42,433 bases of DNA from an uncultured Cytophagia bacterium (GTDB lineage: Bacteria > Zhuqueibacterota > Zhuqueibacteria > Zhuqueibacterales > Zhuqueibacteraceae), in the NCBI GenBank assembly GCA_964447935.1, contig CAYUVM010000001.1, positions 1-42,433 of the forward strand, in the 5' to 3' direction. Each line of letters begins with the position of its first letter. Position 1 is the first letter of the stretch. Positions 10,326 to 29,279 of the stretch are shown piece after piece. The translations under genes were made by a program, and so were the position numbers. Below the pieces are notes generated by a model, which made no database searches, was not told the origin of the DNA, and was given only the letters and a program-made list of their open reading frames with translations.

Positions 10326-13300
10326 TTATCTCATCAACAACATCTTTCGCACCTTCACAAAATCACCAGCCTCGAGGCGATAAAAAAATACGCCCGAAGC
10401 CACTTGCACGCCGGCGTCACTCTTTCCATCCCATTGCACGCTGCGAATGCCTGCCTCTTGCACGGCGTTGATGACGATGCGCACTTTTTGGCCGAGCATG
10501 TTGTAGATCACCAGCTTCACATGCGACGACTTCGGCAAATCATAACGAAACGTCGTCGTTGGATTAAATGGATTCGGATAATTTTGATAAAGCGCAAAAG
10601 TCTTCGGCAGCTCAACGACATTGTCCGCAACCGAGGTGGCGTTCGGATCGATCATGACCGTGGCGTCGGCGGCGATTTTGAGCGGCTCGATGTTGCCAGC
10701 GTTGTCGGCGGCGAGAATGAAGAAGCGATAGGTGTTGCCGGGATCGCCGGAGAACACGAGGGAGGCGTCGGCGAGGTCGCTCTCGAAAAGTTCGAAAGGC
10801 TGGTTGTTTTCGGAAACGTACAAAGCATACGCGCGAATCTTGGAGCCGGCGGCGGCGTCCTGGCCGGACCAGCGCAAAGTGAACGTGGTGGTGTTAATCG
10901 TGGCCGGCAAAGCTGCGATGCGGCTACTGGGAATCAACGCATCGACGGTATTGAAAATCTCCGGTGTGTCGATCGGCTCGTTGGTGTCGAACACGATACT
11001 CGCTTTGGCACGCACCACCTCGCCGGTCTTGGCAGTGTTTCTGGGACGGATGGTGTAATTCGCAAAACCTTCGCCGCGATGTTGCGCGTTGTTCACCGGC
11101 AAAAATCCGTTGAACACCGGCAATTGGCCGGTGGCGGGATCGATAGCGCGGAAAATCCAAAACGCTTCGTTGGTGGTGACGTCGAGGCCGGCGTTGACGT
11201 CCACGAACACGCCGAGCGAATCGCGCACGTCGAGGCGCGTGCTGTAAAATGCGCGGTTCTCCGGCACGGTGAAAGAGCGATTGGAAAAACCAAAATTGCC
11301 GAGGCGGAAACTGCGGCTGTCGAGCGTGCTATCAAGCTTCTGCCGAATCGTCACCACCTGCGCCGCGGCCGTGGCTTTGGTGGAATCATTCTCGAAGCGG
11401 ATGGTGTAAGGCAAGGTCTGCGTTGCGGTGATCCATCGCTCGTCGCCGAAGCCGGCTGGGCCGGTGATGTCGTTGGGGTCGATGGCTCTCTGCACTGGAA
11501 TTTCAAAACACTTTGAACCGGGAGCACAGGGGCGATCTTTGGGAGCAGGTGGCAGGGGATCAACAGGAGGGTAATCTGGTAAAGAGCCTCCTCCACCTTT
11601 ACATGCTTCTGCTTGCGCATCTTCAAAAAAAGACTCACCGAAAATCACCACCCCGCTATAATATACTATTGCTACTCCTTTGCAGATGTCAAATTCCAGT
11701 CCGTCAGCGCCAAATACTGAGCGACAGGACGAAATCATTGCATTCAAGAAAATCAAGTCACAAATAATTTTTTCGCTGCCACAAAAATCGTAACACGAAT
11801 CATGAATCAAACAAGACGATGAAAATATCAAATCAGGTACGCATGAACAAATGCCGTCATAAATCCAATTGATCGGACATTCATTTGCTGAGTTAGTATT
11901 GCCGGGCAACAACGCCTGTATTGGATTATTGATGTCCAAATTTACCAATGTCCTAAACAACTCAAACCGAAGCTCTCCTTGCACCTTTGAGTATATTGTT
12001 ATTGAACCACGGACACCGGGCCGCAAATAATCTCGCGGCCCCTTTGGTTCTCGATAATCCGTGTAAAGGCTGTGAAACTTATACTTCAAATGATCTGGAG
12101 AATACCCAATTGACGCTCCTGATAAGCTGGCTACAATACTACTTGAACGTGGAATATCAATATTGCCAGCGTTCATAAAATCGATTGTTACAGAGACAAT
12201 TTGCCCCTCACGCGCTGCTGATGGAAATTGCACTTTGGTGACTAACAGTTCTTCAGTACCAGGTACGACCTCGAAGCCATTCAATAAAGAAACCATTTTT
12301 CCAGATTGAGTTTGCACACTCAGATCGTAAAAACCCAACACCGCGCCATTCAAATTGAATGAAGCAAATGCTTTTGTTTGATCAACAATAAGCAGGTCAT
12401 GAGCAAGGATTGTCGAGTTCCCTTTTTTTAAAGTTACCGTCATACTGTTGTCGAACTTTGCACCGAGCAATTGTACCGTTACCTGCCCCGTGTTGCCTCC
12501 AACTTTAGAATCCACCAAATGAATCGCAAACGCCAAGCTATCCGCCTTCAAACTAAACGCGGCTTTCACACTACTTTGTGAGCGGCTGCTCAACAGCAGA
12601 AAGTATTTTCCAATTTGCGACGACGGAATTAAAACTTGTTGAGTGGCTTTCTGTGGCTCAATCGAAGCAAAATCATAGTCATTCAAAGTTGGCGTGCGCC
12701 CGAAGGCCACGTACAACTCATTCGCTGCCGTGCTGTCGCTGTTTTGTAAATCGAGTTGAATGGTCGCGCCGGTTTCGCGTGATTCCAGTTTATAATATCG
12801 TTTTTCTTCCGCGGCCAACATTCCTGTCACCGGCACGCCCAACTTCAATTCCTGCACATCCGTATCCATCAACGCCGCCGAAGCCAAAGCATTATTCGCC
12901 GTGTTGGTCTCGCGAATATTGCGGCGAATGTCCGTGCGCACAATGGCGTGATATTTTCCGGGGGTGACGCCGGGCAATTCGGCGGTGATATTGCCTTCGG
13001 CGTCGGCGCGGAAGAGTTGGGCGAGATTGACTTTCATGCTGATCTGCTGCGAGCCGCCGGGCGCAATGTCGATGTTATGCGTGAGCACGCCGAAGAGCGG
13101 GTCTTCCACCTGCCAAATTGTATCGGCGGAAATATACGCGGCCTCGCGCAAACGGCCAGTGGCGCGGTTGGCGCCGATGTTTTTGAGGGTCCATTTGATG
13201 GTGGTTTCCTCGCCGGGCATAGCGTTCGCGGGAATGATGATTTGGCTCACGATCAAATCCGCGGGCGCGGGTTGGATGATCTTGATGGGCTTCACGCGGG

Positions 13301-29279: not shown

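Follow-up and report, generated by a model that had tools for sequence, protein, structure and literature searches.

Two adjacent giant predicted T9SS cargo proteins with a hypervariable internal slot in front of a DUF7619 cassette

The contig CAYUVM010000001.1 of an uncultured Cytophagia bacterium (42,433 bp, 52.7% GC), which is analysed here as a whole and called the window, carries two long open reading frames (ORFs) on its minus strand, gene A and gene B, and both were confirmed at the coordinates where a first-pass annotation had placed them. They encode giant proteins of 2546 and 3736 aa, each of which is a singleton cluster, and a sorting-domain match above cutoff in each predicts that they are type IX secretion system (T9SS) cargo of type A. 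The two proteins share a scaffold and a C-terminal cassette, and they differ in their heads and in the module that stands immediately before the cassette. The architecture is real and is wider than the two-gene observation made in the first-pass annotation. We consider it probable that A and B are paralogs in tandem, members of a family of giant, fibre-like exported proteins that spans several phyla and has an exchangeable effector slot. The exchange logic of this proposal is well supported, and a toxin role of the slot modules, judged from their sequences, is plausible.

Conserved flanks and replaced modules

The collinearity of the two proteins was evident from BLASTP, in which residues 668-1992 of A aligned with residues 1780-3098 of B at 56% identity and residues 2128-2546 of A with residues 3319-3736 of B at 71% identity. 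The first alignment contains the CARDB repeats (Pfam E 5e-62 and 2e-57 in the two genes), and eight units initiated by PDL or PNL can be read in each translation, in agreement with the first-pass annotation, which had also described the shared beta-sandwich and immunoglobulin (Ig)-like stretch that follows them in the same alignment. The second alignment covers a shared C-terminal cassette of about 385 aa, composed of DUF7619, an FN3-like domain and the T9SS type-A sorting domain, and it bears out the earlier statement that the last ~390 aa from DPNDITGP onwards are common to both. The difference between the heads was likewise seen correctly, since Pfam and NCBIfam assign LamG and DUF642 domains to A and four beta-helix modules with an Ig domain to B. 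The amino acid identity between A and B is 55-65% in the CARDB units, peaks at 74-78% in the beta-sandwich module and has dropped to 31-40% by the Ig tail, and in the slot no identity is left. At the DPND codons it leaps to 98% (93% at the nucleotide level) over about 400 nt (11085-11483), and beyond this tract it is about 70% and then about 45% in the sorting domain.

No similarity between slot A and slot B was detected by BLASTP, and the profile-profile comparison (hhalign) of the slot A family with the slot B family returned a probability of 0.2%. Neither family matched the Ig tail beyond one junction strand. Because the two families are without homology, the contents of the slots differ by replacement and not by divergence. 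The claim that the modules before DPNDITGP are non-homologous thus withstood both comparisons, and the profiles identify them neither as distant homologs of each other nor as part of the Ig spacer. The module coordinates proposed earlier, 11481-11975 and 19245-19975, were right to a few codons and are refined here to 11484-11990 and 19248-19985.

Base composition also changes at the slot. Module A has a GC content of 0.407 and a GC content at third codon positions (GC3) of 0.39, which places it in the lowest 1% of segments of the same size in the two genes, and module B has values of 0.467 and 0.47, in the lowest 5% of such segments in the two genes and in the lowest 10% of those across the window. 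The CARDB scaffolds and cassettes have a GC content of 0.58-0.60 and a GC3 of 0.72-0.76, and the flanks overall lie at 0.57-0.60. The earlier hand count of about 42% for both modules against about 58% in the flanks therefore fits module A and the flanks, but module B has 46.7%. The dip is strong in A, where the low-GC tract of ~1.0-1.3 kb (aa ~1811-2150) takes in the shared Ig tail besides the module, and it is marginal in B.

Locus L011, on an independent metagenome contig, is an end-to-end ortholog of gene A (69% identity in amino acids and 74% in nucleotides), including the phospholipase A2 (PLA2) domain that occupies slot A, and it has the same GC3 dip over the Ig tail and slot (0.41-0.44 vs 0.68-0.73). 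Since the ortholog shares the low-GC tract, the import into the A lineage is old, and the unit that was imported is the Ig tail together with the PLA2 domain. This unit is of foreign base composition. The Ig tail of A is 41% identical to that of the distant PLA2-bearing relative L004 and 41% identical to that of B, whereas in the scaffold A is far closer to B. Over the first 133 codons of DUF7619, A and B share 93.0% of their nucleotides as compared to 87.0% between A and its ortholog, and elsewhere the ortholog is at least as close. This pattern points to gene conversion between the paralogs A and B at the 3' flank of the slot.

Replacement was also observed beyond the two paralogs. The DUF7619 domains of A, B and the KSB1 relative L001 are 82-91% identical, yet three unrelated modules precede them. 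In three independent assemblies (L001, L002 and L003) the scaffold gene ends about 15 aa past the tail, and the module, DUF7619, FN3-like domain and sorting domain form a separate gene with its own signal peptide; owing to this signal peptide the unit suffices by itself for export, and it is plausible as a donor form. In L001 (2232-11566) the scaffold gene is gene-B-like and encodes 2440 aa, and after a gap of 446 bp it is followed by a gene with the signal peptide MRLSIDLNQKTLAVIVLLFAISGAFPLCAQ, an unrelated module of ~190 aa and the cassette. Two close relatives, L062 and L063, are identical over the tail (100%), 94% identical over an RHS shell of ~900 aa and 98% identical in DUF7619, but from the RHS core to TRIIRPS-DPND they have a stretch of ~170 aa (before the DUF7619 match at 10001) that is unrelated in the two and sharply delimited. 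L035 and L043 behave in a similar way. As to the tips of L062 and L063 themselves, one is Gly/Ala-rich with hydrophobic stretches and the other is polar and His-rich. The content of the slot has been replaced while its flanks were kept, and this holds for paralogs, for close relatives and on the scale of phyla.

The DUF7619 cassette and the contents of the slot

A query from DPNDITGP to the end of the protein retrieved more than 3300 relatives. The DUF7619 domain (Pfam PF24595) scored 60.0 bits in A and 55.3 bits in B against a cutoff of 27. The conserved unit begins about 8 residues before DPN, with the consensus I-P-[VI]-[VLI]-x-[SPA]-x-DPN[DE]I.GP, and the I-P-V-V-x-S stretch before DPND looks like the first strand of the domain; the 3' boundary of the slot always coincides with this first strand. 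A conserved Arg-specific cleavage site before DPND was considered and rejected, as only 42 of 171 sequences have Arg at position -3. Many proteins of Bacteroidota consist of a signal peptide, a short Cys/Gly/Asp linker and the sequence from DUF7619 through to the sorting domain, which amounts to an empty slot. In the literature DUF7619 appears only as a predicted intramolecular-isopeptide CnaA-like domain, kin to the DUF11 and CLIPPER stalk domains (PMC12617251). The predicted isopeptide Lys (DPNxK; Lys657 of L7WFS8, PMC12617251) is Ile in A, in B and in 162 of 171 family sequences, and from this Lys position we rejected an isopeptide-stabilised DUF7619 for the subfamily.

The sorting domain (TIGR04183) scored 40.9 bits in A and 42.3 bits in B against a cutoff of 23. 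Among 65 C-termini of the family that were scanned, 29 carried Por_Secre_tail, 15 dockerin and 5 RTX repeats, and the RHS-type relatives end in cadherin-like and RTX repeats. Since dockerin or RTX modules can also terminate this layout, the architecture of slot and DUF7619 is not tied to T9SS. The first-pass annotation had reasoned that a C-terminal T9SS signal forces the payload inside the protein; this was too narrow, considering these other endings and the distance of ~300 aa (DUF7619 and FN3) between slot and sorting domain. A weaker form of the argument survives, namely that the C-terminus is occupied in each of these cases by an obligatorily C-terminal module.

The relatives described here came only from the cassette search, the locus scans and an exhaustive HMMER search. 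Word-indexed homolog searches with slot A alone or with slot B alone returned no relatives, and a metagenome scan with peptide patterns of the scaffold tail gave 408 pattern matches and no true relative. The metagenome scan with DUF7619 patterns gave 80 loci. Scaffold-tail profile A1 found five genome loci (one in Pirellulales, two in Eisenbacteria, one in Bacteroidetes and one in a bin labelled Nealsonbacteria), all of them in the order tail, variable region, DUF7619. The tail was present upstream in the same ORF in 48 of 85 DUF7619 ORFs, with slots of 170 to ~1200 aa that fell into at least 11 BLAST clusters; L011 was the sole partner of slot A in these clusters, and L024 that of slot B. When only the final 160 aa ahead of DUF7619 were compared, 85 non-identical sequences formed 36 BLAST clusters, 24 of them singletons.

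Pfam matches in 46 slots included RHS_repeat (7), TEN_YD-shell (5), Lipase (PF00151; 3), PLA2G12 (2), Lipase_3 (1), the caspase-like Peptidase_C14 (1) and the spacer CarboxypepD_reg (11), and many slots were without a match. In close protein relatives the region before DPND was Cys/Gly-rich and hydrophobic, hairpin-like and hydrophobic, a Pfam glycine zipper, a PLA2 domain, or an RHS core plus ~130 aa. The RHS-type slots have a canonical DPxGL core, then 120-180 aa of unrelated sequence including glycine zippers, and then the conserved junction. In L009, L073 and L080, collagen-like GPGGPGGPG spacers of 150-250 aa were seen between the scaffold tail and a Cys/Gly-rich hydrophobic module before DUF7619. 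The slot of the homologs is thus filled not by one constant module but by many types, enzyme-like and toxin-like ones among them, and these data support a hypervariable slot between conserved flanks across several phyla.

Slot A is the better understood of the two modules. When isolated it matched Pfam PLA2G12 with E 8.7e-7 (29.5 bits), and its homolog P0020 matched the same family with E 1e-7 (32.6 bits) and the prokaryotic PLA2 family Phospholip_A2_3 (PF09056) with E 3.6e-4; the Phospholip_A2_3 score was 21.5 bits against a gathering threshold of 29.4. A profile built from slot A, L011 and L004 matched PDB entry 1FAZ, the PLA2 of Streptomyces violaceoruber, with E 1e-6 over residues 16-122 of 122, the fungal group XIII enzyme 4AUP with E 1e-4 and, weakly, 8K1W (E 0.5). 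CLIHDSCY (C-x-x-H-D-x-C-Y), the Asp of an upstream VPD and nine Cys are invariant in gene A, L011 and L004, and a tenth Cys is common to gene A and P0020. CLIHDSCY and VPD align with CARHDFGY (catalytic His-Asp) and APD (Ca-binding Asp) of 1FAZ. A Foldseek search with the low-confidence model of slot A gave only noise (best E 1.7). From these alignments, slot A is probably a complete and active secreted phospholipase A2 domain of the Ca-dependent type, followed by a Pro-rich linker. Like the secreted PLA2 already known (1FAZ and 4AUP; PF09056 and PF06951), it aligns over the whole enzyme of ~120 aa and keeps C-x-x-H-D-x-x-Y and the Asp of PD; the known enzymes are small free proteins with 4 Cys, whereas slot A has 10 Cys and lies inside a T9SS cargo of 2546 aa. 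Two in-frame stops interrupt the distant PLA2-bearing homolog in L004 (3-7175) and L005 at conserved positions. One is a TGA in place of the Arg of LRPG and the other falls on the Tyr of NTYRFF; both recur in two independent assemblies and could indicate a pseudogene or recoding.

Slot B belongs to a rare family. The exhaustive HMMER search over 1.84 billion representatives found only six weak relatives (E 3.6e-5 to 1e-3), all of them small proteins that are secreted or lipoprotein-like and either consist of this domain or have it at their C-terminus, and in L024, from an organism of 31% GC, a slot B-type domain occupies the equivalent slot. With L024 included, the family has invariant His, Arg, Asn, Asp, Trp, Glu and Tyr positions, and these conserved polar residues suggest an enzyme-like domain. 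The genomic context of two slot B relatives, P0121 and P0123, offered no functional clue. In L091 (5001-6479; CP031031.1, a replicon of 93 kb that looks plasmid-sized), a slot-B-like domain makes up the C-terminal third of a secreted protein of 492 aa, amid a run of uncharacterised secreted proteins including an astacin-like peptidase.

Features of the two genes and their neighbourhood

The coordinates of the features are collected in Table 1. The most likely start of gene A is the ATG at 17966, with a TTG at 18005 as the alternative, and signal-peptide-like stretches were read by eye at both N-termini (MSKRLFILILTVTTIIIFCGNLLAQ in A and MLRSRNRFGFFAFFMLAIFTTSTAHAQ in B). In the head of A the Pfam matches have E 1.9e-24 (Laminin_G_3) and E 1.5e-27 (DUF642), and TIGR04362 scored 162 bits against a cutoff of 120; the FN3-like stretch of this head was assigned by eye only. 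In support of the FN3-like domain in the cassette, the relative P0048 has a Pfam fn3 match. The repeats in the head of B (24600-29279) have a period of 1182-1188 nt and are 65-85% identical as DNA.

Table 1. Positions of genes A and B and of their parts in the window
Feature	Position	Strand	Description
Gene A	10326-17966	-	2546 aa; signal-peptide-like N-terminus, LamG and DUF642 head, eight CARDB, tail, slot A, cassette
Gene A head (aa 1-667)	15966-17966	-	Laminin_G_3 aa 235-394, DUF642/choice-of-anchor C aa 411-565, then FN3-like stretch
Gene A CARDB scaffold, eight repeats (aa 668-1690)	12897-15965	-	55-65% identity to gene B
Gene A scaffold tail (aa 1691-1992)	11991-12896	-	LKLGVP..YYKL..ELYVAFGRTPTLND beta-sandwich module and Ig-like region; GC low from ~aa 1811
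Slot A (aa 1993-2161, 169 aa)	11484-11990	-	Predicted secreted phospholipase A2 domain, then Pro-rich linker; Pfam core 11601-11822 with CLIHDSCY
Gene A DUF7619 (aa 2162-2345)	10932-11483	-	Begins at DPNDITGP
High-identity tract	A 11085-11483; B 18849-19247	-	93% nt, 98% aa; onset exactly at DPND codons
Gene A FN3-like domain (aa 2346-2455)	10602-10931	-	Weak PDB sequence matches to titin and other FN3
Gene A T9SS type-A sorting domain (aa 2456-2546)	10329-10601	-	TIGR04183, FlgD_ig and Por_Secre_tail matches
Gene B	18069-29279	-	3736 aa; signal-peptide-like N-terminus, four beta-helix modules and HYDIN-type Ig, eight CARDB, tail, slot B, cassette
Gene B head (aa 1-1779)	23943-29279	-	Four ~394-aa right-handed beta-helix modules (Beta_helix/NosD) and HYDIN-type Ig (choice-of-anchor D)
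Gene B scaffold	19986-23942	-	Eight CARDB (aa 1780-2796) and scaffold tail (aa 2797-3098)
Slot B (aa 3099-3344, 246 aa)	19248-19985	-	Uncharacterised domain with invariant His, Arg, Asn, Asp, Glu, Tyr, Trp
Gene B cassette	18072-19247	-	DUF7619 18696-19247, FN3-like 18360-18695, T9SS type-A sorting domain 18072-18359

The neighbours in the window encode other T9SS cargo, Sel1/FG-GAP, BNR/sortilin-like, CsgG-like and VWA proteins and regulators. Two BNR/sortilin-like paralogs lie at 3824-5632 and 8075-10204, one of them with Por_Secre_tail. On the other side of the pair, a Por_Secre_tail protein of 379 aa is encoded at 29452-30591, and CsgG-like and VWA genes are found at 30592-32820. The interval from 29452, where this upstream gene for a T9SS cargo has its stop, to 29279, where gene B starts, contains a 48-nt perfect palindrome, GACAGAATGATTTTGGCAGAATAATTATTCTGCCAAAATCATTCTGTC, at 29351-29398, which could be a terminator or an operator. 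Genes for the T9SS machinery (SprA, PorU, PorV and others) were not found within the 42.4-kb contig.

The intergenic gaps around genes A and B measure 121, 102 and 172 bp, and the 102-bp gap from the stop of B to the ATG of A contains no terminator-like site. Gaps of these sizes leave no room for an adjacent small gene, and they bear out the earlier remark that no immunity-like gene is nearby. In loci of non-T9SS relatives (L006, L035, L043, L044-L046, L049, L060, L077, L082 and L083) a secreted protein of ~200 aa is often encoded 10-320 bp downstream. These proteins end in a PEP-CTERM-like motif (VPEP, a hydrophobic stretch and RRR), and one homologous cluster of seven spans several slot types; they were rejected as cognate immunity proteins, because this single cluster is common to several slot types. 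A 220-aa ORF after L011 was rejected as an immunity gene as well, since it is the start of a BNR gene broken by a transposase-like ORF. The BNR-repeat gene in question (L011, 11224-14120), kin of the window gene at 8075-10204, is cut short by this transposase-like ORF of 712 aa.

Explanations of the slot and comparison with known systems

In the explanation that we favour, the proteins of the family would be laid out as a variable binding head, a CARDB stalk, a beta-sandwich module and Ig tail, the hypervariable slot, DUF7619 (a CnaA/DUF11-like Ig domain), an FN3-like domain and an export or anchor module, here the T9SS type-A sorting domain. New modules would enter by homologous recombination, for which the DUF7619 coding DNA may serve as the 3' anchor and the scaffold tail (in RHS-type relatives the RHS core) as the 5' anchor, and the standalone genes with signal peptide, module, DUF7619, FN3 and sorting domain are possible donors. 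The slot module would be the working effector. Most of the classifiable modules (PLA2, lipases and glycine-zipper or hairpin peptides) would target lipid membranes, and further ones are tips enclosed in RHS shells or a caspase-like peptidase. Once exported by Sec and T9SS, the effector may act on the membranes of other cells, either displayed on the fibre or freed by proteolysis of the flanking linkers, and self-protection would be independent of an adjacent immunity gene.

Tentatively, and with somewhat less than even confidence, this can be taken further to a class of polymorphic effectors with an internal toxin, spread across phyla, in which the toxin stands upstream of a DUF7619 and FN3 adaptor, any C-terminal export or anchor signal may follow, and no immunity gene is adjacent. 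DUF7619 would then be the recombination anchor, and perhaps a presentation or release module as well. The lack of adjacent immunity genes would imply that the targets lie outside the producer's own kind or that self-protection is of another kind.

Several observations weigh against an effector slot. Neither an immunity-like gene adjoining A or B in the window nor a slot-specific downstream gene in the loci of 71 relatives was found. Should the sorting domain serve as an anchor to the cell surface, the slot would lie at the cell-proximal end of the fibre, an awkward position for attack. Lipases, peptidases and PLA2 fit nutrient acquisition equally well. The PLA2G12 scores of slot A and P0020 (29.5 and 32.6 bits) are just below the gathering threshold of 34. 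Slot B, searched alone and as a family profile, has no credible match in Pfam, NCBIfam or PDB sequences and hence no recognisable function. The AlphaFold2 models of the two slots are poor (mean confidence, pLDDT, of 46.5 and 43.1), and the GC dip of gene B is modest (5-10th percentile).

The main rival is ordinary domain shuffling in giant adhesins or enzymes, in which the slot is a permissive linker that accretes catalytic domains for scavenging or surface interaction and no cassette exchange takes place. The lack of immunity genes in the window and in the relatives' loci and the position of the slot at the anchored fibre end keep this explanation up. It is also consistent with the plain spacer CarboxypepD_reg in 11 of 46 slots, with lectin-like or beta-helix heads that resemble polysaccharide-binding and polysaccharide-degrading proteins, with the kinship of DUF7619 to stalk domains of fibrillar adhesins (PMC12617251) and with the stable architecture of gene A between orthologs. 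It does not account well for L062 and L063, which differ only in the tip and have sharp breakpoints, or for the glycine-zipper and hairpin peptides, for which a nutritional role is not obvious. It is mainly as containers of toxins that RHS shells are known, and shells with DPxGL cores and hypervariable tips fill the slots of 7 of 46 relatives. The 36 clusters among 85 sequences also exceed, by a comparison that we infer, the diversity typical of enzyme accretion. We therefore regard domain accretion as unlikely, though it has to be taken seriously.

It is improbable that the slot modules have a structural or anchoring function at the fibre base, for instance as hydrophobic Gly-rich peptides in the producer's own outer membrane, with the difference between A and B being mere spacer divergence. 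The commonest slot type in the T9SS-type relatives is indeed a Cys/Gly-rich hydrophobic segment beside the cell-proximal cassette, and the Ig tail beside the slot is poorly conserved too (34-41% identity). But slot A is a complete PLA2 domain by its alignment, with the catalytic dyad kept in three lineages, the lipase, caspase-like and RHS modules are not anchors, and the slot A and slot B families are without homology. An assembly artefact, i.e., a metagenomic chimera that joined scaffold and cassette with low-GC inserts of another organism, would explain the sharp composition changes at the slot in a single 42.4-kb contig whose two giant proteins are both singleton clusters, but it is hardly credible, since both ORFs are intact through all junctions, the independent contig L011 is collinear with gene A throughout, PLA2 slot and GC dip included, and a B-type module fills this slot independently in L024.

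Polymorphic toxins are usually surveyed by way of variable C-terminal domains with an immunity gene behind them, and a family with an internal variable module before a DUF7619 cassette would escape this kind of screen. Should the slot modules prove to be effectors, the principle of polymorphic toxins would carry over to exporters with an obligatory C-terminal signal (T9SS, the type I secretion system (T1SS) and dockerin display), and for T9SS there would be a concrete candidate function in antagonism or predation among uncultured phyla, KSB1 and Eisenbacteria for example. The T9SS of the organism in the window would, if the class with internal toxins is real, be a delivery route for swappable membrane-attacking effectors. 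New effectors could then be harvested by a simple rule, which is to take the sequence between the scaffold tail and DPNDIxGP, and orphan domains, slot B and the Cys/Gly-rich peptides among them, would be part of the yield. The pairs L062/L063 and A/B are natural experiments in cassette exchange.

A full-text literature search, in which subscription-only papers were not covered, found no description of an internal slot flanked by DUF7619, and the first-pass annotation had likewise been aware of no described system of this form. Polymorphic toxin systems (Rhs, CdiA and similar), which were reportedly treated by Zhang et al. in 2012, are alike in that a constant delivery or scaffold region is combined with a hypervariable module bounded by conserved sequence, in the replacement of cassettes between near-identical proteins, as in L062 and L063, and in the repertoire, which has RHS shells with variable tips in the relatives as well as lipid-attacking and glycine-zipper modules. 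Such systems are also treated in PMC7073777 and PMC9424270. They differ in that the toxin is at the extreme C-terminus, whereas ~385 aa of cassette follow the internal module here; the sharpest conserved flank is on the 3' side here (DUF7619); and a cognate immunity gene stands directly downstream in those systems, whereas none is found here and no orphan arrays of modules and immunity genes were seen. Rhs/YD-repeat features (RHS repeats, DPxGL core) are absent from A and B by Pfam. Because a C-terminal toxin and an adjacent immunity gene are both lacking, A and B are not members of these systems, and the likeness is in the exchange logic only. The polymorphic-toxin logic that the first-pass annotation saw in the layout is partly supported, namely in the exchange between conserved flanks.

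TANFOR polymorphic toxins of Bacteroidetes, whose link to T9SS is only hypothesised (PMC7073777), come from the same superphylum and have been proposed as T9SS-linked polymorphic toxins. They combine an N-terminal TANFOR domain with a C-terminal toxin and an immunity gene downstream, and they lack a sorting domain; these three elements are absent from A and B, which do have a type-A sorting domain. The lipocone paper lists T9SS among the delivery hallmarks of polymorphic toxins and describes toxins N-terminal to RTX repeats, and the family with a DUF7619 slot is not described in it (PMC12419801).

MARTX toxins are also giant exported proteins whose internal effectors vary by recombination between conserved flanks and whose export signal is C-terminal. 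They are exported by T1SS and have glycine-rich repeats, and their effectors are set free by a cysteine protease domain; the CARDB and DUF7619 scaffold of A and B is unrelated to theirs. Pfam matched neither a cysteine protease domain nor RTX-type repeats in A or B, and among the relatives RTX repeats are confined to some of the C-termini. Fibrillar adhesins with DUF11, CLIPPER or DUF7619 stalks (PMC12617251) resemble A and B as cell-surface proteins of Gram-negative bacteria in which DUF7619 is combined with long tandem Ig-like stalks. In those adhesins DUF7619 is a tandem stalk repeat, whereas in the present family a single DUF7619, with Ile in place of the Lys, always stands right after the variable slot.

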